A stretch of 64,000 nucleotides of DNA, taken from assembly GCA_964397565.1 (NCBI GenBank), contig CAYNJC010000009.1:10182-74181 (forward strand), given 5' to 3'. Positions 3,136 through 54,715 of this stretch are shown one piece after another. The position numbers were made by a program, and so were the translations under genes. The notes beneath the pieces were generated by a model, which was not told the origin of the DNA, did not search any database, and saw only the letters and a program-made list of their open reading frames with translations. Within the stretch, counting starts at the first letter, position 1, and every line of letters begins with the position of its first letter. The stretch comes from an uncultured bacterium. GTDB lineage: Bacteria > Auribacterota > UBA3054 > JAPLST01.

Positions 3136-3220
3136 TGAGAACCCGATTCTGGTGAGGCACGGCGGCAGCGCAGCATCGAGGTCCAGGCCGCTGCCGGGAC
3201 TAGCCCAGTCAGCGCGGCAG

Positions 3221-3262
3221 TTTTCCGTTTTCGGTTTTCCGTTTTCGGTTTTCCGTTTTCGG
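3221..3262. repeat. Perfect 3 x 14-nt tandem repeat (ttttccgttttcgg), i.e. six heptamers
   Basis: Read directly: 3221-3234, 3235-3248 and 3249-3262 are identical. A related gttttcg heptamer array lies at 28291-28318. Confidence 0.95.
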
Positions 3263-7213: not shown

Positions 7214-9346
7214 ATGGCAAAATGCATTCTATTGATTTGTGTGACAGCGATCGTTATCACCGCTCAATATTCTGAAGGGGCGACCAAAGAGGCAAAGCCG
7301 ATGAGCCAGCTGCAACGACAGGGAAATCCGATCATAGACATGATTGCCGCAGGTATTCCTTTCGGTTTCGTGTACGATGGAAATGATGCGGAGACGCTCC
7401 TGCCTCAGTGGGCCAAGCGCCAGGAGACAAAGCGACTCGACAACGGACGATCCCTTACCACTGCGAGTTGGACAGACAAGAAGACCGGCCTAACTGTTAT
7501 CTGCGAGACAACCAGGTTTGAGGGGTTTCCCGCGGTTGAATGGCTCGTGCGGTTTCGCAATGACGGCGTGGCAACTACGCCGATCATTGAGAATGTCCAA
7601 GCCATGGATCTGTCGCTCGATACGCCGCTTGCGGACGGCCGTTTTGTCGTTCACCAGTTGAACGGAGCGCCTTCCGATCCGTCTGATTTCGAACCCAAGA
7701 CCGTAGCGCTTGCCCCTGGGACGAAGCATGTCATGGGCGGCGGCGGCGGGCGTTCCAGCAACAAGGATTTCCCTTTCTTCCGCGTGGACACCGGGACCGG
7801 CACACTAATCGTGGCCGTGGGCTGGTCCGGGCAGTGGAAGGCGACTCTGCAGTGCCGTCGCGGAGAGACGAAAGGAACGGAAGCCGTTGCGGTCGATCCA
7901 GCGCAGCCGGCAAACAAGGCCTCATCGAAGGAGACTGGCGGGTCACGCTCGATCCTGCATTTGACTGCCGGCCTGGAACTGACCCGTTTTCGTTTGAATC
8001 CCGGCGAAGGCGTTCGTGGGCCTCGCATGCTCGTGCTCTCCCACCAAGGCGACCCTGATCGGTCCTACGTCGTCTTCCGCCGCCTGATGCTCAAGCACTA
8101 CGTCGCCCGTGCGCACGGGGCCAAGTCGATCAGCCAACAGCCCATCGCGGCCGCAGGCGGCAAGGGTGCCGTCGAACCGCAACCCCTCTTGTTCTGCAAC
8201 ACGTGCTTCACGCGCAAGGGCGGATGGCTGAACGAGTGTAATGAGAGCAACCAGATTTCACTGATTCGAGCCCTCGCGCCGCTGGGAGTGCAGGCGGTCA
8301 TTACCGATGCCGGCTGGTTCAAAGGCGGTTGGCCCAACGGTGCCGGCAACTGGGAGTTCGACCCGCAAAAGTACCCCCGTGGCATTGGGCCGGTGGCGGC
8401 CGCCGCGAAGGAATGCGGCATGACCTACGGTCTGTGGTTCGAGCCGGAGCGGGTCGTGGTAGCCACACCGATCGACCGCGAACACGCTCCGTGGGTGCTC
8501 CGCTCCAAGGTGGCGCATGATCGACTGCTCAACTTCGGCGTGCCGGAAGCACGCCGGTTCTTCTTTGAAATTGTAGAACAGTATCTGAGACTCCCCGGGG
8601 TGGGAGTTTACCGCCAAGACTTCAACATCGACCCGCTGCCCTTCTGGCGTGAGAATGACGAACCTGACCGCCAAGGTGTCCATGAGATGAAGTACATTGA
8701 GGATCTCTATGCCTTCTGGGACATGATCCGCGCCGCCCACCCGGACATCCTGATGGAAGAATGCGCCAGCGGCGGGCGGCGCGTTGATCTGGAAACCGTC
8801 ATGCGGTTCCAGATCCACCAGAAGAGCGACTTCTGGTTCGACAACCTCGTGGATCAAGCCAGTCTCTACGCGCTTAGCCGATACTTGCCCAACGGCACTA
8901 TCTCCGTCCCGCTAGATCGACTCGACGACTACTCGTTCCACTCAGCTATGGCATCGTCCCTGATCACCGGTTGGATCGCCGACGACCCCCACTTCAACAC
9001 CGCCCGCGCCAGGCAGATCACCGACACCTATCGCTCTGTGCGTCACCTTCTGAACGCGGACTGGTACGGATTAACTCCATGGAGTCGCGACCTGGATCAC
9101 TGGCTTGTCTCGCAGTATCATCGTGACGACCTCGCTGAGGGAATGATCCTCGCCTTTCGCCGCGACAAGTGCGGACCCGCTGTGACCGTTCAACTCAAGG
9201 GCCTCACCCCCGAGAGCAAGTACGAAATCCGCTCAACCACTACGGGGCAGACGCGCCAGGCTACCGGAGCGGAGATGATGAATGGCCTGAAATTGGCGAT
9301 CCCGCAGGCGCCAGGTTCAGATTTGATCGTTTATCGGAAGCTATGA
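7214..9346 (+). CDS. Secreted GH36-like alpha-galactosidase
   Basis: Signal-peptide-like N-terminus. GMTYGLWFEPERV, YRQDFN and EECASGGRRVD motifs resemble GH36 catalytic regions. AGGAG lies 6 nt before the ATG at 7214. Confidence 0.65.
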   Translation: MAKCILLICVTAIVITAQYSEGATKEAKPMSQLQRQGNPIIDMIAAGIPFGFVYDGNDAETLLPQWAKRQETKRLDNGRSLTTASWTDKKTGLTVICETTRFEGFPAVEWLVRFRNDGVATTPIIENVQAMDLSLDTPLADGRFVVHQLNGAPSDPSDFEPKTVALAPGTKHVMGGGGGRSSNKDFPFFRVDTGTGTLIVAVGWSGQWKATLQCRRGETKGTEAVAVDPAQPANKASSKETGGSRSILHLTAGLELTRFRLNPGEGVRGPRMLVLSHQGDPDRSYVVFRRLMLKHYVARAHGAKSISQQPIAAAGGKGAVEPQPLLFCNTCFTRKGGWLNECNESNQISLIRALAPLGVQAVITDAGWFKGGWPNGAGNWEFDPQKYPRGIGPVAAAAKECGMTYGLWFEPERVVVATPIDREHAPWVLRSKVAHDRLLNFGVPEARRFFFEIVEQYLRLPGVGVYRQDFNIDPLPFWRENDEPDRQGVHEMKYIEDLYAFWDMIRAAHPDILMEECASGGRRVDLETVMRFQIHQKSDFWFDNLVDQASLYALSRYLPNGTISVPLDRLDDYSFHSAMASSLITGWIADDPHFNTARARQITDTYRSVRHLLNADWYGLTPWSRDLDHWLVSQYHRDDLAEGMILAFRRDKCGPAVTVQLKGLTPESKYEIRSTTTGQTRQATGAEMMNGLKLAIPQAPGSDLIVYRKL

Positions 9347-19096: not shown

Positions 19097-19104
19097 CTAT
19101 TTCT

Positions 19105-19177
19105 CATCGGTCATTGGTCAATGATCAATGGTCATTTGTCATTGTGCTGCAATTGACAACTGACCGTTGACCAATGA
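19105..19177. terminator. Long imperfect inverted repeat built from TCAWTGG heptamers; candidate bidirectional terminator
   Basis: The left arm tcattggtcaa..ggtcatttgtcattg pairs with the right arm caattgacaactgacc..gttgaccaatga (one 8-nt bulge and one 1-nt bulge). It starts 9 nt after the stop at 19096, between convergent genes. There is no clear U-tract. Confidence 0.4.
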
Positions 19178-20564: not shown

Positions 20565-20570
20565 AACCAG

Positions 20571-20619
20571 CGTTCGACGTTCGATGTTCAATGCTCAATG
20601 TTCAATGTTCAGTGTTCGG
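20571..20619. repeat. Seven tandem degenerate heptamers (YGTTCRR)
   Basis: cgttcga cgttcga tgttcaa tgctcaa tgttcaa tgttcag tgttcgg. The array overlaps the last codons and stop of the NFACT gene. Confidence 0.9.
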
Positions 20620-28245: not shown

Positions 28246-28290
28246 GGAATAGCATACAAAATTATGGGTGAAAGGTCAAGGGCAGGAGAA

Positions 28291-28368
28291 GTTTTCAGTT
28301 TTCGGTTTTCGGTTTCAGTATTGACGCACTAACGGTTCAACGTTCGATGTTGAATGTTCAGTGTTGAA
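28291..28368. repeat. Two heptamer arrays (GTTTTCR x4, then TGTTSAA-type x5)
   Basis: gttttca gttttcg gttttcg gtttcag (28291-28318) and ggttcaa cgttcga tgttgaa tgttcag tgttgaa (28334-28368). They fill the tsaC-degT spacer. Confidence 0.85.
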
Positions 28369-40663: not shown

Positions 40664-40800
40664 GGCGCAACATTTTGCCACCAAGACACGAAGGCACGAA
40701 GAAACCACTGCAAGATGCTGATTAGCTTTTGCTGAATCTAACCTTCGTTCGTCGCGAACGAAGTTCCCCCATCAACAATGAACAAAAGAGCCGGCCAGCG

Positions 40801-44183: not shown

Positions 44184-44204
44184 GGGTCAAAGGTCAAAGG
44201 TCAG
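44184..44204. repeat. Three tandem heptamers (GGTCARA)
   Basis: gggtcaa aggtcaa aggtcag. Confidence 0.85.
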
Positions 44205-45622: not shown

Positions 45623-47302
45623 TCAGTTTTTTTTATCTTTCGTGTCTTTCGTGTCGGCCGGCGTGGTCTTGGGCGCGGCCGGCGCCGGTTCGTCCGATGT
45701 AATCGTGCCGCCCGCCGTCACGGATATGGAGGCGATGTCGCAGGTCAAGTTCGGCCGGCCGTAGATTCTCAGGCGCATGACCACGTTCGGATTGCCCACA
45801 TCGACACGATCATTGCCATACCGCGAGGTTATCTTGAAGCCCTTGCGAATGGTCTGCCAGCCGGCCGCGGGTTTGAGCCGCACATACGTTTTCGGCCAAT
45901 CCTGCTGTAACGTGTCGCCTTTGCCGCGCCCGCGCTCTTCAAACTCGAACATGACTTCAATCTCGGTCACCGCCGTGGCGCGGGCCTTCATCTCCAGCGT
46001 GTACGTTTTCTCAAATTGCAGCGCCATGTTCCCGCCAATCAACACATAGGGCTGCATGCCCAAGTACTCGTTCATGTAGGCATAGCGCACAAAGCGCACG
46101 TTCTGGCCGGCCTCATCAACGTCATTGGTTATCTGCAGATACCCGCCGTTGTTCGGCATCAGGCCATGGCGAAACCAGGAGAACGCCACGCGCCAGCCGG
46201 CCGGCACCGTCAGCGGCTTCAGCACATCCAGGGCCTTCAGCGCCGCCGGTTGCGCAAACAACGGCTCCTTGGCCGAGCCGGTGTTGAGCGCCAATAAGAC
46301 TTTGCCGTCTTGCGTTCCGATCAGCAAGTCCAGATCGCCGTCGCCGTCCCAATCGGTTAATTCGGGCCGGCAGAGTGGGCTGGTAAACGGCACGCCATCG
46401 GCGAACGGCACCAAGCCTTTGTTACTCAACAGGTACTTTTCGCGCGGTGCGCGCTCGGGCCGGTCTTCATAGAGGTACAGGCTCAGATTGCCGAGCCGAT
46501 CGCCGACAATCATGTCGCGCTGGCCATCGCCGGTCAGGTCGCCCACGGCCGGCACAAGCTGTTCTTTGCCTTCGCCATAGATCAGCCAGTAGCGCTCGTC
46601 CTTGGAAAGTTGGAAGGTGCCGCTGCCGCCGCGATTGCGGTACAGATACACAGCATTGGCCGAATAGGAGCCCTCGCCGGTGATGAGGTCCAGGCGTCCG
46701 TCCCGATCCCAATCTAGTACCAGCGGCGCGGAAAAGCTGCCGATGTCAAGGGTGCTGCGGTCCAGTTGCAGTAACGGGATCGGATTGGTGATTGCATACA
46801 GGGACGGGCGACAGTCACTTTCGGTGAACTCGCCCTTGCCGCGATTGCGCAGATAGCCAACCACGCCCAAAATGTTACCGAGCACGATGTCCGTCTGATT
46901 GTCGGCATTCAGATCGGCCAAGCCGATCGTCGCGGCATCACCCACATACGTGCGCACGAAGCGCGCCGGCTTGATCACGCGCTGCTTGCCGGGCGGGCCC
47001 AGCGGGTAAATCCAGACAAAGCCCTTGCCGTCACTCACGACCAGTTCGACCTTGCCGTCGCCATCCACATCACCGACCCGCGGACACGCGCCGAAGTTGT
47101 GGCCGCGCATTTCAAAGCCCTCGACTAGAATCCTAATGCTGTCGTTGTTGACCTGCACTTCATTGTTACGATTAATGCCGTCCCACAAATTGTCGGCCAC
47201 CGTCGTGCGCGCCAAATTTATATTTTCATACTCGGCCGCCAACGGCAGCGTCAGCAGCACGGCCAGTGCGGTCAGCAGACGCTTGGTTTTCATCATGCCC
47301 AT
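45623..47302 (-). CDS. Secreted FG-GAP/VCBS-repeat protein
   Basis: Signal peptide [20 protein letters not shown]. Repeats [54 protein letters not shown]. Its stop lies 1 nt before the GH130 start. Confidence 0.75.
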
Positions 47303-47324
47303 CACATGCGGTTGCCGGATAACG

Positions 47325-48956
<1,632 letters not shown>

Positions 48957-49136
48957 TGATGGCTGTTAGTATAGCAAAATCCGCCGCTGTTTGCCACAAC
49001 CGCCGGTCTTCCTCTCAATCTCTCCTCCCTTCTCGCCGTGGGTGGGAACGCGGGCGAGGCACCCCGTGCGTGCGTTGCCGGACCCATGCCCGTCACTCTC
49101 TCTTGCCAGTGCGCGGCGCTTGTGCTATACTACCAC

Positions 49137-49550
49137 ATGCGTCAACGCTGGCTTCGTGTTTGCCTGGTCTGCGCCGCGGGTTTGGCCGTGGTCGGCGTAC
49201 TTCATTACGCCCGTTTTTCGGACGAGCGCTGCTTCTCGATCTGCCAGTTTCGGCGCCTGACCGGCCTGCCCTGCCCAACCTGCGGAGTGACCCGCTCGCT
49301 GGCCATGTTGGCCAAAGGCGAGTGGCGTCGCGCCGTCACCTATCATCCCATGGGCCCGCTGGTGGCCTTGGCTCTGTGCGGCGGCTGGCTGTACCTGCTG
49401 TGGTGCGCCGCAACCCGCGTCACCCCGACGATCCCGCGCGGACGCACCCCCGTCATCATTCTGCTCGCGTTCTTGATTATCAATGTCATCATCTGGATTG
49501 TACGGTATATTTACCCGCTCATCGGCGGCTTTTCGGGAGGCAGTGCATGA
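49137..49550 (+). CDS. DUF2752-family membrane protein
   Basis: FRRLTGLPCPTCGVTRS motif plus TM helices. The start is uncertain (track ORF begins at 49038). Confidence 0.55.
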   Translation: MRQRWLRVCLVCAAGLAVVGVLHYARFSDERCFSICQFRRLTGLPCPTCGVTRSLAMLAKGEWRRAVTYHPMGPLVALALCGGWLYLLWCAATRVTPTIPRGRTPVIILLAFLIINVIIWIVRYIYPLIGGFSGGSA

Positions 49551-50044
49551 ATATCAATCTGATCGTCAACGGCACCACCCATGCGCTCGACATCGCGCCC
49601 GGGGAACGTCTGCTCGACACCTTGCGCCAACTCGGCTACACCAGTGTGAAATTCGGCTGCGGTGAAGGCACCTGCGGCTCCTGCACAGTGCTGCTTGACG
49701 GCGACGTGCGTCTGGCCTGCATCACCTTCACCGCCCAGGTCGCCGGCCGGCAGATCACCACCGCCGAAGGCCTGGGTGGGCACGGCCATTTGCACCCGCT
49801 GCAACAGGCATTCCTTGATGAAGGCGCGGTGCAGTGCGGCTATTGCACGCCCGGCATGCTGCTCGCCGCCAAGGCCTTGCTGGATGGCACGCCCGCGCCA
49901 ACCGACGCCGAGATCACCCGTGCACTCGACGGCAATCGTTGCCGTTGCACCGGCTATGTTGCCATTCTCAACGCCGTCCGCCGCGCGGCGAAGCTTTCAA
50001 CGCAAAGGCACCAAGGCACTAAGTCGCAAAGGCCAAGCACATGA
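49547..50044 (+). CDS. (2Fe-2S)-binding small subunit of a xanthine-dehydrogenase-family molybdoenzyme
   Basis: CGEGTCGSCTV, CGYCTPG and CRCTGY motifs. ATGA overlap with the DUF2752 gene. Atypical 17-aa tail KLSTQRHQGTKSQRPST. Confidence 0.85.
   Translation: MNINLIVNGTTHALDIAPGERLLDTLRQLGYTSVKFGCGEGTCGSCTVLLDGDVRLACITFTAQVAGRQITTAEGLGGHGHLHPLQQAFLDEGAVQCGYCTPGMLLAAKALLDGTPAPTDAEITRALDGNRCRCTGYVAILNAVRRAAKLSTQRHQGTKSQRPST
49998..50038 (+). repeat. Left inverted-repeat block of the GxxExxY cassette
   Basis: caacgcaaaggcacca (49998-50013) and gtcgcaaaggccaag (50024-50038). The first is a 14/16 reverse complement of tggcgcctttgcgtta at 50482-50513. Confidence 0.65.
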
Positions 50045-50421
50045 CCGAAAATGAAATCAGCAAACATGTTGTCATGTGTGCCATTGAAGCGCATCGCACT
50101 TTGGGTGGACCAGGACTGCTTGAATCTGTTTATGAGGAGGCGTTGGCGTGGGAACTTCATTCTAACGGGCTGTTGGTTAAGCGCCAGTACGCCGTACCGG
50201 TTGTCTACAAGGGCGTCACGCTGACGCATAATCTTGTGGTTGATCTTCTGGTCGAAGACAAGGTTGTAGTCGAGTGTAAGGCTGTCTCACAATATAATGA
50301 TGTTTTCGTAGCGCAAGTCTTGACCTACTTGCGTCTCATGAATCTGCGTCTCGGTCTTGTCATCAATTTTGGTGAGGCGTTGGTGAAAGACGGCATTCAC
50401 CGCGTGGTTAATGGTCTCTAA
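50041..50421 (+). CDS. GxxExxY-family protein (PD-(D/E)XK nuclease-like superfamily)
   Basis: 126 aa with motif GPGLLESVYEEAL. AT-rich (line 50281 = 26/60 GC). Its ATG overlaps the stop of the 2Fe-2S gene. Confidence 0.8.
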   Translation: MTENEISKHVVMCAIEAHRTLGGPGLLESVYEEALAWELHSNGLLVKRQYAVPVVYKGVTLTHNLVVDLLVEDKVVVECKAVSQYNDVFVAQVLTYLRLMNLRLGLVINFGEALVKDGIHRVVNGL

Positions 50422-50481
50422 CCACTTATCGTTCATGAGACCACAGCCACTTACCGCGCGTTTCCTAATCAAGATTGTACC

Positions 50482-50513
50482 TGGCGCCTTTGCGTTATGG
50501 CGCCTTTGCGTTA
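50482..50513 (+). repeat. Perfect 2 x 16-nt tandem repeat; right inverted-repeat block of the GxxExxY cassette
   Basis: tggcgcctttgcgtta tggcgcctttgcgtta, read directly. Confidence 0.9.
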
Positions 50514-50559
50514 TCATGTTATGTTTGTATGATTGCCATCACTGCTTGATGAGGGTATC

Positions 50560-52896
50560 ATGAATCTTTGCGTTGGACATTCGGTGGGCAAACTCGACGG
50601 CGCCGGCTTGGTCACCGGTACCCGTAAATTTGTTGATGATTTCACTGTGCCCGGCATGCTGGTCGGCAAAATCCTGACCAGTCCGCACGCCCACGCCCGC
50701 ATTGTCCGCATTGACACACGCGCAGCCCGCGCGCTGCCTGGTGTTCATGCCGTCCTGTGCTACAAGGATCTTCCGCGCGTCGCGCACACCACTGCCGGCC
50801 AAGGGTTTCCCGAACCGTCGCCGTATGACAGCTTTGTGTTCGATCACAAAGTGCGCTATGTCGGCGATCGCGTCGCCGCCGTCGCCGCCGAGTCAGACGA
50901 GATCGCTGACGCGGCGCTCGCCCTGATCCAGGTCGAGTACGAAATCCTGCCCGCCATTCTGGATGCCAAGCAGGCGCGCCAGCCTGGTGCGCCGGTCATC
51001 CATGATGAACCCGAGGCGCGCGTCGTTATCCCGATCGAATATGATCCGAAAACAAATCTGGCCGGGCATGTCCGGATTGACGTCGGCGACTTGGCGCGCG
51101 GCCTGGCCAACGCCGAACTGGTCGTCGAGCGCGAATTCAAGGCGCACTATGCCCAGCATTGCCCGCTCGAGCCGCACGTCACCCTCGCCATGTTCGACGA
51201 AGACGGCCGGCTCGTCTTGGTCACCAGCACGCAAGTGCCATTCCACGCCCGCCGCATCGTCGCGCAGGCCCTGCAGATTCCCCTCAAAAACATCCGCGTG
51301 ATCAAGCCGCGCATCGGTGGCGGCTTCGGCAGCAAACAGGAGGTGTTCCTCGAGCAACTCTGTGCTGCGCTGGCTTTGGCGGCACAGCGCCCCGTCAAAA
51401 TCCGCTACTCACGCGAAGACGATATCGCCCGCAGCCGCACCCGCCATGAGATGTATGTCACCATCACGCTGGGCGCCAAACGTGACGGCACACTCACCGC
51501 CATCAGTATGAACGTGCTCAGCAACACCGGCGCATATGGCGCGCACGCCCTCACGGTCGCCTCGAATTGCGGCAGCAAAGTCCTGCCGCTGTATCCCTGC
51601 GCCAATGTCATGTTTGACGCCACGGTTGTCTACACCAACCTGCCGGTCGGCGGCGCCTATCGCGGCTACGGCGCAACTCAGGCCGCCTTTGCCATGGAGT
51701 GCGCGCTCGATGAACTTGCCCACAAACTCGGGGTTGACCCGCTGGCTTACCGCCAGCAACTTCATATTCGCAGCGGGCAAACCTCACCGATCTTTGCCAA
51801 ACTGGGTGAAGGCAAGGCCGGCGTGCAACAATCCATCGGCAGCTGCCACCTCGCAGAATGCATCACCCGCGGCGCTGCCGCCATTGGCTGGCAGCAAAAA
51901 TATCGGTCCGACTGGTCCGACCGGTCCGACTCTTCTGCGCAGCCCCACCTCCGGCGCGGCGTCGGCATGTGCACGCTCATGCAGGGCTCGAGCATTCCGG
52001 AAATCGACATGGGCGCCGCCTCGCTCAAAATGAACGAAGATGGCTCGTTCAATCTGCTGGTCGGCGCCACCGACCTTGGCACCGGCAGTGACACGATCCT
52101 GGCTCAAATCGCCGCCGATGTCCTCGGCGTCGACACGACCGACCTGCTGGTCTATTCATCCGACACCGATATGACCCCGTTTGATGTCGGCGCCTATGCC
52201 TCGAGCACGACCTACTTGAGTGGCAATGCCGTGATCAAGACTGCCGAAACGATTAAAGCGCAACTTCTGCGCGTCGCCGCCGAAATGGCCGGCAAAGACA
52301 GTGCCGGCGCGACCCTGCACGACAAGCATGTCGTCTTCGCCGATGGCACGCGCGTGCCGTTTGCCGAGATCGCTTGCTATGCCCTCTATCAAAAAAACCA
52401 ATTCCAAATCGCCGCCACGGAGTCCTACATCTCACATGTCTCGCCGCCGCCCTTCTCGGCCCATTTCGCCGAAGTTGCGGTCGACCCCGAAACCGGCGAG
52501 GTGCAGCTGCTCAAATATGTGGCCGCCGTCGACTGCGGCACCGAGATCAATCCGCAGCTCGCCCGCGGCCAGACCGAGGGCGCGGTCGTCAATGGCATCG
52601 GCTATGCCCTCTGCGAGGAATTTATCTTTGATCGCGCCGGCCGCCTGATCACCGACTCGTTCATGAATTATAAAATCCCCTCAACCCGCGATCTGCCCGA
52701 ACTGGTCACCATCCATGTGCCAAGTCACGAGCCAACCGGGCCGTTCGGCGCCAAGAGCGTCTCGGAAATCTCGATCAACGGCGCGCTGCCCGCGATTGCC
52801 AATGCCATCTTCAACGCCACCGGCGCGCGCCTGACTGAAGGCCCGTTCACGCCCGAGCGCGTCCTCAACGCCATCCGCGCCACGCGCAATGCATAA
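50560..52896 (+). CDS. Molybdopterin-binding large subunit of a xanthine-dehydrogenase/aldehyde-oxidase-family enzyme
   Basis: Start MNLCVGHSVGKLDGAGLVTG (a/b-hammerhead). GGGFGSK motif. About 780 aa, typical length. Confidence 0.85.
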   Translation: MNLCVGHSVGKLDGAGLVTGTRKFVDDFTVPGMLVGKILTSPHAHARIVRIDTRAARALPGVHAVLCYKDLPRVAHTTAGQGFPEPSPYDSFVFDHKVRYVGDRVAAVAAESDEIADAALALIQVEYEILPAILDAKQARQPGAPVIHDEPEARVVIPIEYDPKTNLAGHVRIDVGDLARGLANAELVVEREFKAHYAQHCPLEPHVTLAMFDEDGRLVLVTSTQVPFHARRIVAQALQIPLKNIRVIKPRIGGGFGSKQEVFLEQLCAALALAAQRPVKIRYSREDDIARSRTRHEMYVTITLGAKRDGTLTAISMNVLSNTGAYGAHALTVASNCGSKVLPLYPCANVMFDATVVYTNLPVGGAYRGYGATQAAFAMECALDELAHKLGVDPLAYRQQLHIRSGQTSPIFAKLGEGKAGVQQSIGSCHLAECITRGAAAIGWQQKYRSDWSDRSDSSAQPHLRRGVGMCTLMQGSSIPEIDMGAASLKMNEDGSFNLLVGATDLGTGSDTILAQIAADVLGVDTTDLLVYSSDTDMTPFDVGAYASSTTYLSGNAVIKTAETIKAQLLRVAAEMAGKDSAGATLHDKHVVFADGTRVPFAEIACYALYQKNQFQIAATESYISHVSPPPFSAHFAEVAVDPETGEVQLLKYVAAVDCGTEINPQLARGQTEGAVVNGIGYALCEEFIFDRAGRLITDSFMNYKIPSTRDLPELVTIHVPSHEPTGPFGAKSVSEISINGALPAIANAIFNATGARLTEGPFTPERVLNAIRATRNA

Positions 52897-54715
52897 CCCG
52901 CCTTTTCTCGTTCCACCCAAGCGCGTCCGGCTGCACGCCGCCACGTTGCAGCTGCCGCGCGTGGTGACCGTTCAGGCGGACGCGCCGTGCACCGCCGCCG
53001 CGCACCACCTACAAGAATTGTTGACTGCCAACGATCCCGTCCACCGGCGGCATCGTTTGTCCGCCGCGCCCGCGCTGGTTACCATGCTTCAGACGGCTGC
53101 CGGACATGGCCCCGAAAGCTACACGCTGGCCATTACGCCGCGGGGCATCCGCATTGCCGCCGCAGATGCCGCCGGCGCGTTCTATGCTGTCCAGACTCTG
53201 CGCGAGTTGTTGACCATCCACGGCGATGCGCTGCCGTGTTGCGCAATCCGCGACTGGCCCGATTTCCGCCGGCGCGGCGTCTATCTCGATATTTCGCGCG
53301 GCCGCGTCCCGACCTTGGCCTGTCTCAAGGACTTGGTTGCCCTGCTGGCCCAATGGAAGATCAACGAACTGCAGCTCAACATCGAAAACGTGTTCCAGTT
53401 TGTCGCGCATCCGGACATCGGCAAGGGCTACAGTCCCCTATCCGCCAAGGACATTGTCCACCTGCGCGAGCATTGTGCCCGGTATCATATTCAGCTTGTC
53501 GGCGCATTTGCCAGTTTTGGTCATTTTGAGAAAATTCTGCAATTGCCGAATTACCGCATGCTGGGCGAGCTGCCCGGCCAGCATTACTGGCCCGGTGGCA
53601 CGACCCTATGCCCGACCGATCCACGTTCAATTCGCTTGCTAGCCGAGCTGTACGCCGAGTTCGTCCCACTGTTCACCGCTGTTGACTTTAATATTAATGG
53701 CGACGAAACCTGCGAGTTGGGCGAAGGCCGCAGCAAACGCAGGGCAGATAAGGTTGGCAAAGGCCGCGTTTATCTCGACTTCGTGCTGAAATTGGCTGCG
53801 CTCGTGCGCACGCATGGCAAACGCACGAATATGTGGACTGATATTGTGCTGCAACATCCAGAACTGCTCGACGACATACCGCGCGACATAGTCATGTGCA
53901 ATTGGGACTACAGCCCGGCTGGCACACGCATTCCGCGCACGGGCGACATCGCCGCGCACGGCTATCCTGTGGTCGTCTGCCCCGGCACCAGCAGTTGGAA
54001 TACGCATGGCGGCCGGCTGCAGCTGGGCATGGACAACATTCGCGTCTTTGCCGCCGAAGGCCTGCGGCACGGCGCGGAAGGCCTGCTGAACACCGATTGG
54101 GGCGACAACGGCCACCGCAACTTGCTGGCGGTCAGTTTGCATAATCTGGCGTGGGGCGCAGCGCAATCATGGCACCACGCCGGTACCAACGCCGATGGCT
54201 TCAGCGCGCGCCTCGGCCGCGCCGTGTTCGGCATTGACGACGCACGCTTTGCCGACGCCCTGCGCAGGCTGGGTGGTTGTGCGCACGCATGCCTTTTGTA
54301 CGGCATTCTCATGCCACCGATTCAGTGGGATTGGGACGCGTTGGGCGGCGCACTGCACGATCTGCAGCAGGTCAATCCGAACGAGCTCCGCGCGCATGCC
54401 GCCGCGCTGCGCGCCGTGCGCTGGCCAACCCTGCCGGTCTCGGCGCCACCGTTTGCGCGGCGCCTGCGCGAGGAGCTGGTCATGGCGACGGCGCTCGACG
54501 CGCTGGCCTGTCGCCGCGCCCTGGCGTTCAAGCAAGAGCAACTTGGCGCGCGGGTCACGGCGCGCGAGTGGCAGGGGCTTGGCGCGCAAACCGAGGAGAC
54601 CATGCAGGCCTTCGCGCGCGTCTGGCGCCTGCACAATCGGCCGTCACGTCTGCGCGAACACTTGGCCGGCTTCCGCGCCACACTGCGCGCGTATCAGCAA
54701 CGCCACGCACCATGA
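52889..54715 (+). CDS. GH20-family beta-N-acetylhexosaminidase-like protein
   Basis: IRDWPDFRRRGVYLDISRG and NINGDETCELG resemble the GH20 catalytic-domain motifs. 8-nt overlap with the upstream gene. Confidence 0.65.
   Translation: MHNPPFLVPPKRVRLHAATLQLPRVVTVQADAPCTAAAHHLQELLTANDPVHRRHRLSAAPALVTMLQTAAGHGPESYTLAITPRGIRIAAADAAGAFYAVQTLRELLTIHGDALPCCAIRDWPDFRRRGVYLDISRGRVPTLACLKDLVALLAQWKINELQLNIENVFQFVAHPDIGKGYSPLSAKDIVHLREHCARYHIQLVGAFASFGHFEKILQLPNYRMLGELPGQHYWPGGTTLCPTDPRSIRLLAELYAEFVPLFTAVDFNINGDETCELGEGRSKRRADKVGKGRVYLDFVLKLAALVRTHGKRTNMWTDIVLQHPELLDDIPRDIVMCNWDYSPAGTRIPRTGDIAAHGYPVVVCPGTSSWNTHGGRLQLGMDNIRVFAAEGLRHGAEGLLNTDWGDNGHRNLLAVSLHNLAWGAAQSWHHAGTNADGFSARLGRAVFGIDDARFADALRRLGGCAHACLLYGILMPPIQWDWDALGGALHDLQQVNPNELRAHAAALRAVRWPTLPVSAPPFARRLREELVMATALDALACRRALAFKQEQLGARVTAREWQGLGAQTEETMQAFARVWRLHNRPSRLREHLAGFRATLRAYQQRHAP

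Follow-up and report, generated by a model that had tools for sequence, protein, structure and literature searches.

Why does a small gene for a putative nuclease stand between two subunit genes of a molybdoenzyme that most relatives keep side by side? The question is raised by a stretch of 64,000 nucleotides (nt) from contig CAYNJC010000009.1 of an uncultured bacterium, hereafter the window, in which a GxxExxY gene bordered by inverted repeats separates the gene for a 2Fe-2S small subunit from that for a molybdopterin large subunit. An earlier inspection of the letters, which we call the sequence-only reading, had taken the gene and its repeats for a foreign single-gene cassette bounded by inverted repeats, probably selfish or mobile. 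That proposal withstands all comparisons reported here, mobility itself being the part that we infer. Our best explanation, to which we give a probability of roughly 0.6, is that positions 49991 to about 50568 form a selfish gene cassette with defined repeat termini, resembling the intervening sequences (IVSs) of 23S rRNA but placed in a protein-coding operon. The parts of the locus, all on the forward (+) strand, are as follows.

49547 to 50044, +: 2Fe-2S small-subunit gene (Pfam Fer2/Fer2_2 and NCBIfam matches)
49991 to 50568, +: whole inserted cassette, about 0.58 kb, comprising left arm, GxxExxY gene, spacer, right arm and 3' leader (from alignments with the related locus L008 and from GC content)
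49997 to 50040, +: left arm, with the outer end TCAA followed by the 8-nt units CGCAAAGG / CACCAAGG / CACTAAGT / CGCAAAGG / CCAAGCAC (sequence, inverted match, family consensus)
50041 to 50421, +: GxxExxY gene, intact, 126 amino acids (TIGR04256, PF13366)
50422 to 50479, +: non-coding spacer from the stop codon to the right arm (sequence)
50480 to 50513, +: right arm, CC followed by two copies of TGGCGCCTTTGCGTTA (perfect tandem)
50514 to 50559, +: AT-rich 3' leader, followed at 50560 by the ATG that the large subunit uses and carrying the GAGGG (50551-50555) that precedes it (sequence; kept in loci L120 and L129)
50560 to 52896, +: molybdopterin large-subunit gene (Pfam Ald_Xan_dh_C, MoCoBD_1 and MoCoBD_2)
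50566 to 50575, +: CTTTGCGTTG, within the first large-subunit codons, a perfect complement of CAACGCAAAG at 49998-50007 (inverted repeat)

The cassette occupies the stop/start junction of two genes that are coupled in relatives

Scanning with the large subunit yielded 32 related loci, and both subunit genes are present in 30 loci other than the window. In about 27 of these 30 the two genes adjoin within a few tens of bases, which bears out the earlier claim that the GxxExxY gene splits normally adjacent partners and supplies the empty sites that the sequence-only reading had proposed to look for; in a Lentisphaerae locus (L009) that lacks the cassette, the subunit genes overlap by GTGA. A gap of about 0.6 kb between them was seen, among the scanned loci, only in the window and in its nearest relative in the scan, L008, whose large subunit is 94% identical in protein. 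Ignavibacteria (L015, L016, L037) carry intersubunit spacers of 260-380 nt, and the one that was read, L016, holds no arms.

Alignment with L008 places both boundaries of the insert. Homology is continuous up to ...CGCCGCGCGGCG at position 49990 and is then lost, and homology to L120 ends at the same base; on the right, L008 homology resumes near GCGTTGG at about 50570. The gap in homology between these points indicates a single insert of about 0.58 kb, which takes in the 17-codon small-subunit tail, the two repeat blocks with the GxxExxY gene between them, and the AT-rich 46 nt before the large-subunit ATG. The 17 terminal codons of this subunit (49991-50041, KLSTQRHQGTKSQRPST) are thus read from the left arm of the cassette, and the suspicion that they form a foreign tail proved correct. 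Base composition sets the same unit apart, at 47-50% GC vs 62-65% in the flanks: the GxxExxY gene stands at 48%, as its AT-rich appearance had suggested, and the downstream spacer at 47%, vs 65% in the core of the small subunit and 62% in the large subunit.

The point of insertion is precisely the stop/start junction between the subunit genes, whose translation is coupled in relatives, and the operon stays readable. The small subunit ends on ATGA at 50041-50044, where its TGA stop overlaps the ATG of the GxxExxY gene as first noticed from the sequence, and the large subunit obtains a new Shine-Dalgarno sequence and ATG from the leader. Since the GAGGG and ATG come with the leader, both neighbours of the cassette remain translatable. 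The leader recurs in lineages with the GxxExxY cassette (L120, L129) and is missing from those that carry a cassette with a four-helix-bundle gene at this junction (described below); the spacer at 50422-50479 is conserved in L129 and not at unrelated GxxExxY loci. One metatranscriptome contig, of low depth, covers 49915-50115, the junction of small subunit and cassette, which is thin evidence but fits co-transcription of the two. A promoter-like TTGCCA-17-TATCAT (10 of 12 matches) also lies in the leader, just before the large-subunit ATG, at 50533-50561.

The encoded protein belongs firmly to its family. It matches TIGR04256 ('GxxExxY protein') at 135 bits against a cut-off of 35, covering profile positions 1-116 of 116, and PF13366 (PDDEXK_3) at 126 bits against a cut-off of 22. 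Its motif G25-L-L-E28-S-V-Y31 and the PD-(D/E)XK residues D68 and E78-C-K80 are invariant in an alignment of 40 sequences. An AlphaFold2 model has a mean pLDDT of 96.3 and the element order H-H-E-E-E-H-E, and its best fold matches in the PDB are PD-(D/E)XK nucleases, namely Cas4 SSO0001, lambda exonuclease, AdnAB and DrdV. Judged by its sequence and predicted structure, the putative nuclease looks functional. Sequence searches of the PDB returned no relative, PADLOC and PHROGs gave no match and hence nothing that points to a known role in defence or in phages, and profile searches found no transposase match in this protein, the sole open reading frame (ORF) of the cassette. The family is large (the window protein used alone as query reached at least 7,992 clusters at 90% identity), and a survey that lists it gives its function as 'Unknown' and notes 'multiple transfers' (PMC3424549).

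Repeat arms accompany GxxExxY genes across phyla

The sequence-only reading had pointed to a 16-mer repeated in tandem about 60 nt after the GxxExxY stop and inverted relative to a motif upstream of the gene. Both features hold. The two copies of TGGCGCCTTTGCGTTA (50482-50497 and 50498-50513) form a perfect tandem that starts 60 nt after the stop, and their inverted partner, at 49999-50013, is 93% complementary over 15 nt. The repeats are nevertheless better described as arrays of 8-nt units: four or five tandem units fill 50001-50040 of the left arm, and each right-arm 16-mer, the reverse complement of TAACGCAAAGG-CGCCA, amounts to two units ending in the outer-end motif GCGTTA, so that these CGCAAAGG-type arms have the outer ends TCAACGC...GCGTTA. 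Extending the arms (49999-50036 against 50475-50512) gives 71% complementarity over 38 nt. The CTTTGCGTTG segment at 50566-50575 may be an outermost arm unit or a chance match; in the minimum-free-energy fold it pairs with the left outer end. Arrays of at least three such units occur in the 64-kb window at the right arm only, and Rfam reports no family at gathering score in the window. The window cannot by itself prove that the arms are significant, because 15-mers with up to three mismatches match three times against 3.95 expected, which is not above chance. Their significance comes from other loci.

We fetched 80 metagenomic loci whose GxxExxY proteins are 63-75% identical to that of the window, and their flanks carry the same repeat almost everywhere, as arrays of ACGCAAAG, ACGCAGAG, GCGCAAGG and ACGCCAAG units that begin TTAACGC and whose reverse complement ends GCGTTAA. 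Around 79 GxxExxY genes the density of the unit motif is 3.4 per 100 nt within 100 nt of either gene end, vs 0.17 in the gene itself and about 0.35 at distances above 600 nt (also the value for the window as a whole), an enrichment of about 10-fold beside the genes. Counted as arrays, 211 lie within 600 nt of a gene and 15 in 74 kb of far flank. Neighbouring units are spaced by 8 nt in 385 of 461 pairs and by 16 nt in 69. From 103 left arms and 92 right arms we derived the consensus T-Y-A-A-(CGCARAG-N)n; left arms and reverse-complemented right arms share the form T-[T/C]-A-A-CGCARAG-N-CGC..., with AA in 90-98%. A strict three-unit arm pattern is found at 35 of 78 GxxExxY loci and nowhere in 281 kb of unrelated genomic loci, and arm-unit usage co-varies with protein distance (Mantel r = 0.20, p about 0.0005). 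These counts show that the arm family is tied to GxxExxY genes across phyla. A first score of flank complementarity by local alignment, which placed 7 of 64 loci above the 99th percentile and the window itself low, understated the arms and was replaced by these motif-based counts.

Where enough flank is available, comparable arms with conserved outer ends accompany 58 of 67 GxxExxY genes, which agrees with the sequence-only reading, on which a lack of comparable inverted repeats at other GxxExxY copies would have spoken against a cassette. Their arrangement varies. The layout of the window, left arm, gene, right arm, is clear in nine loci, and in 14 more one arm was detected; in 22 of the 67 the gene lies between two complete hairpins (median length 81 nt, median loop 13 nt), the right arm of the first ending 13-20 nt before the ATG and the left arm of the next starting 0-10 nt after the stop. 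A typical hairpin, L061:1880-1965, folds at -40.2 kcal/mol (z = -6.6) and has a mismatch at each eighth position. The hairpins have no U-tract, and a search for intrinsic terminators found only weak terminator-like sites; Rfam searches of six arm-rich loci gave only far-sub-threshold matches to generic hairpin (miRNA) models.

More distant homologues, 41-47% identical and all annotated 'GxxExxY protein', lie in cultured bacteria between housekeeping genes, in the same orientation and with the same layout, and use variant units (CACAGAG, CGCGAAG).

Bernardetia sp.: ade / GxxExxY / mannose-1-phosphate guanylyltransferase; arm units ACACAGAG
Sphingomonas parapaucimobilis (NZ_CP155749.1, L132:1460-1911): fabD / GxxExxY / fabG, in the fatty-acid synthesis operon; arm units ACGCGAAG
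Bacteroides finegoldii (NZ_OY725952.1, L137:15185-15655; protein WP_032839887.1): radA / GxxExxY / gene for an FAD-dependent protein; arm units CCACAGAGGACGCAGAGGACACAGAG

Three elements in the 24.8-kb B. finegoldii record have almost the same arms, each of about 27 nt (CCACAGAGGACGCAGAGGACACAGAG), and two of the three lack the gene. In these two (L137:5402-5585 and L137:8746-8893), 100-126 nt of unrelated sequence replaces the gene; both sit at gene junctions, one just after an ATGA stop/start overlap. An A-rich leader follows all three elements, and the ATG of the next gene comes after it in at least two, directly so in 8746-8893. The gene-less elements look like non-autonomous copies. Relatives about 70% identical to the window protein occur in Planctomycetota and in Litorilinea (Chloroflexota), and this similarity suggests transfer across phyla. 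A metagenome-assembled Bacteroidetes locus (L019:2555-2615) has, after a gene, an isolated partial hairpin made of units of the window cassette's type (CGCCAAGCCGCGAAGGCGCAAAG ... CCTTTGCGCG), with no GxxExxY gene in the 10-kb locus around it.

One junction in several states

Within the protein cluster formed by the small subunit at 90% identity there are four different C-terminal tails, and the contigs that encode them show four other states of the junction. These are listed here together with an outgroup.

L120-L123: same arms and 3' leader as the window; GxxExxY gene truncated to roughly its first 93 nt, which run directly into the right arm (...AATCTGTTT / TGCGTCTTGG...)
L129: the cassette of the window, which here has independently lost 237 bp between two GAGGCGTTGG direct repeats; E28 replaced
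L008 (3396-3990): frameshifted four-helix-bundle gene (TIGR02436, 47 bits; PF05635, 50 bits) with 8-nt arrays of the GGAGTGAT and CTCCATC types
L124-L127 (L124:3195-3480): four-helix-bundle cassette as in L008, internally deleted
L128 (630-1030), outgroup, small subunit 79% identical in protein: degenerate four-helix-bundle cassette

Relatives that lack the gene and still carry the tail and the repeats would, on the sequence-only reading, have spoken against a cassette, and relatives without an intact gene do exist in which this is so: L120-L123 and L129 have both. They also retain remnants of the gene, which indicates that they are deletion derivatives of the same cassette and not evidence against it. 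Between lineages the GxxExxY cassette is 90-91% identical and the flanking genes 88-91%, a similarity that points to a single insertion, inherited vertically and then decaying. The cassette is as old in this clade as the lineage split, and it has been inactivated twice by internal deletion, leaving arm-arm remnants like those of miniature inverted-repeat transposable elements (MITEs). The tree of the flanks is too star-like to give a branching order or to tell whether the GxxExxY lineages form one clade.

The other lineages carry a different cassette at the same point. Its arms are again inverted 8-nt arrays (GGAGTGAT... / ...CTCCATCG), and the copies in L008, L124 and L128 are all degenerate, by frameshift or internal deletion. 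Because the distant L128 also has one at the junction, the four-helix-bundle cassette is probably the older occupant, replaced by the GxxExxY cassette. Four-helix-bundle genes, annotated 'S23 ribosomal protein', also have inverted GGGTGTR / YACACCC heptamer arrays on both sides on plasmids of Nostoc punctiforme (pNPUN01, L134:1060-1850) and Calothrix brevissima (L135:1060-1700), in each case just downstream of a tyrosine recombinase gene. The architecture is therefore common to two gene families, each with its own units, and the plasmid loci link such cassettes to the heptamer arrays of cyanobacteria known as short tandemly repeated repetitive (STRR) sequences.

Competing explanations and known relatives

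If the unit is a selfish cassette, its arms would be both the termini of the element and the substrate of the encoded putative nuclease, probably in the form of a periodically mismatched hairpin or cruciform. By cutting, the nuclease would promote homing-like or transposition-like copying of the unit to new sites or alleles, and gene-less arm pairs would be its non-autonomous derivatives. Both the mobility of the cassette and the action of the nuclease on the arms are steps that we infer. A wider version is more doubtful and is put forward tentatively: GxxExxY and four-helix-bundle genes, each with inverted arms of 7-8-nt units, might make up a single unrecognised class of mobile cassettes that inhabits operons across phyla, in which the protein would recognise the periodic mismatched hairpin or cruciform arms and drive copying, with a preference for gene junctions and sites already occupied, and whose decay products might feed many STRR-like arrays as well as the ORF-carrying IVSs of 23S rRNA.

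Several observations weigh against the selfish-cassette explanation. The four-helix-bundle cassettes share the architecture and have no nuclease, so the arms need not be a nuclease substrate. The fold matches behind the nuclease assignment are weak, all at E >= 0.01 and TM <= 0.5 (best E = 0.01, TM 0.46-0.50). The window layout recurs in only nine of 67 loci, and a gene inside its own terminal repeats is not the sole architecture. Target-site duplications were found neither at the window junctions nor around the three B. finegoldii copies, the TTAA palindrome at arm ends being indistinguishable from the arm itself. Four of the eight lake metagenomes with the locus yielded no empty-site or excision reads at a depth of 3-5, and the 64-kb window contains no second GxxExxY gene. 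Finally, the strict arm pattern occurs in 47 of 2.9 million IMG/VR contigs, all phage-like (56 sites), and no GxxExxY ORF lies beside any of the 56.

The main rival is an unlikely but substantial one, in which the arms act as RNA stems after the fashion of an IVS: paired in the operon transcript, over long range around the ORF or as local hairpins next to it, they would let host RNase III excise or stabilise the ORF segment and so insulate the host cistrons. The arms would then serve tolerance and expression instead of being DNA termini, the nuclease would act elsewhere, and the unit would spread by an unknown route or by recombination through flanking homology. In the minimum-free-energy RNA fold of 49985-50585 (z = -2.7) the two arms pair and enclose the ORF; the complete hairpins at other loci are strong, as at L061, and would not act as terminators, since they have no U-tract. 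The sister cassette at the junction encodes a protein of the 23S_rRNA_IVP family, known IVSs are ORFs with inverted-repeat borders whose stem is cut by RNase III (PMC4990558), and the cassette appears to be transcribed with the small subunit, yet that transcript is a single contig, from the one RNA run that contains the locus, with no mapped ends. RNase III, however, requires complementarity and not sequence, and it is the sequence of the arms, their 8-nt period and their outer ends that are conserved across phyla. Arms pair with their own partners no better than with those of other loci (duplex energy, p = 0.10), a result that also counts against the selfish-cassette explanation, and the window arm duplex is just about 2 standard deviations better than random partners. 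There is thus no sign of selection for specific pairing; the conserved feature of the arms is their sequence.

Weaker than the RNA-stem explanation, and in our judgement improbable, is the possibility that the arms are generic short-period intergenic arrays (of the STRR or TAACTGA type) unrelated to the gene, GxxExxY being an accessory gene that lands in such spacers or gathers them, with no role in mobility for the inversion. Cyanobacteria, Beggiatoaceae and Bacteroidetes have heptamer arrays for which no mechanism is known (PMC4679880), and the window itself holds at least six other 7-8-nt arrays (3220-3262, 19104-19177, 20570-20617, 28290-28368, 40679-40702 and 44185-44203). The phage-like IMG/VR contigs (L138-L184) carry ACGCAAAG-type arms, mostly single, in intergenic spacers, as far as spurious ORFs in GC-rich DNA, which hampered the classification, allow their position relative to genes to be judged; some adjoin arrays of other units (L141:7600-7930, L159:4450-4790). 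These gene-less arms indicate that arms are not exclusive to GxxExxY and are part of a broader set of short-period intergenic arrays. To that extent the filler alternative raised by the sequence-only reading stands, but its other part does not: within the window the unit is arrayed only at the cassette, and the unrelated 281 kb have essentially none. Nor does an unrelated array explain the enrichment beside GxxExxY genes, the conserved outer ends and the paired orientation, the way unit usage tracks the protein, the different gene family with a different unit at the same junction and on the Nostoc and Calothrix plasmids, or the fact that arms and gene come and go together at orthologous sites. 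Least credible, and already refuted, is a chance match in a low-complexity spacer, with the gene a plain small ORF between two others: dozens of unrelated GxxExxY loci carry the same arms, which outweighs the unremarkable 15-mer count that would permit it.

Among known elements, the closest in kind to the selfish cassette proposed here is the ORF-carrying 23S rRNA IVS, of which the window unit is a variant that sits in a protein-coding operon, carries an ORF for a putative nuclease and has periodic arms. IVSs (Leptospira, Coxiella; ORF of the S23p / PF05635 type) are about 0.4-0.8 kb long and have one small ORF, stem-forming terminal inverted repeats, a GC content below that of the host and a sporadic distribution; they are regarded as selfish and are of unknown origin (PMC4990558). 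Their protein family, PF05635/TIGR02436, is the one encoded by the sister-lineage cassette at this junction (L008, L124, L128). Unlike the cassette, which lies between protein genes in a stretch where Rfam finds no rRNA, IVSs are inserted in an rRNA helix (9, 25 or 45); their ORF encodes an S23p four-helix bundle and not a GxxExxY protein of the PD-(D/E)XK type, and their stem is an arbitrary complement, whereas the cassette arms are family-conserved arrays of 8-nt units.

Other systems share single features. Intergenic arrays of the STRR and TAACTGA kinds in Beggiatoaceae, Cyanobacteria and Bacteroidetes are patchy across phyla and suspected of horizontal spread (PMC4679880); like the arms they consist of 7-8-nt units, but they are direct repeats upstream of genes, with one indirect repeat reported and no link to a small gene or to inverted pairs. 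Transposons with terminal inverted repeats and their MITEs resemble the cassette in shared termini, gene-less copies (B. finegoldii) and internal deletions (L120, L129), and differ in that the cassette has no recognisable transposase or target-site duplication and sits precisely at gene junctions, where the translation signals of the downstream gene are restored.

In the repetitive extragenic palindrome (REP) system, a small gene, the REP-associated tyrosine transposase (RAYT), is flanked by inverted hairpin repeats, gene-less doublets (REPINs) lie elsewhere, and the gene is thought to mobilise the repeats. The single small gene, flanking inverted hairpins and gene-less copies all recall the cassette. 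RAYT, however, is an HUH/Y1 transposase, unlike the PF13366 protein with its PD-(D/E)XK fold, and REPs have no tandem 8-nt units and are dispersed in hundreds of copies, whereas the arms cluster at the gene in the loci examined. Homing endonucleases include PD-(D/E)XK enzymes such as I-Ssp6803I, and a free-standing homing endonuclease gene would likewise be a small nuclease gene between conserved adjacent genes, patchy in close relatives, with invasion followed by decay. We know of no homing endonuclease gene with periodic inverted arms, and GxxExxY is, to our knowledge, not among the described families of these enzymes. Integron cassettes are promoter-less single-ORF units separated by imperfect hairpin sites (attC), a hairpin-gene-hairpin layout like that of 22 of the 67 GxxExxY loci; the GxxExxY cassette differs in having no integrase or attI among its neighbouring genes, no attC core sites and arms with an 8-nt period. 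No description of repeats flanking GxxExxY/PDDEXK_3 genes was found in the searchable literature or in Rfam.

The locus matters beyond its own operon. GxxExxY/PDDEXK_3 and TIGR02436/PF05635 are very large families without an established function, and the origin of ORF-carrying 23S rRNA IVSs and of short-period intergenic arrays is a question decades old (PMC4990558, PMC4679880). The window and its relatives offer a testable anatomy, with defined arms of 8-nt period, conserved outer ends, a putative nuclease and gene-less derivatives, and they present one site in several natural states: with the cassette intact, with either of its two deletion forms, and, in relatives, with another cassette. 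Cultured carriers are at hand in B. finegoldii, S. parapaucimobilis and Bernardetia, S. parapaucimobilis being convenient for experiments. If the nuclease does recognise the arms, the units would make up a new class of small mobile elements and the protein would possibly be a new structure- or repeat-specific nuclease. For annotation, such cassettes add foreign tails or heads to neighbouring genes, as to both subunits here, and spawn spurious low-complexity ORFs.

Some further observations concern the arrays and the neighbourhood. The units of the other arrays in the window are GTTTTCC, TCATTGG, GTTCAAT, AGTTTTC, GGTCAAA and the octamer CACGAAGA, none of them of the unit type of the cassette, and two convergent genes have between them the array at 19111-19177, which forms a 28-nt, 82% hairpin. 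In one phage-like contig (L144:11005-11922) an arm pair brackets two small ORFs that, by eye, are a candidate Phd/YefM-RelE-like toxin-antitoxin pair. The operon that holds the cassette, 49038-54715, reads DUF2752, small subunit, cassette, large subunit and GH20, with stops and starts overlapping in a chain (ATGA at 49547, ATGA at 50041, 8 nt at 52889-52896); it has no gene for an FAD-binding medium subunit. Upstream of DUF2752, L124-L127 carry a nucleoside transporter gene (L124:1-2750), and the window (45623-49000), L001 and L120 carry genes for glucose-6-phosphate isomerase and an FG-GAP protein.

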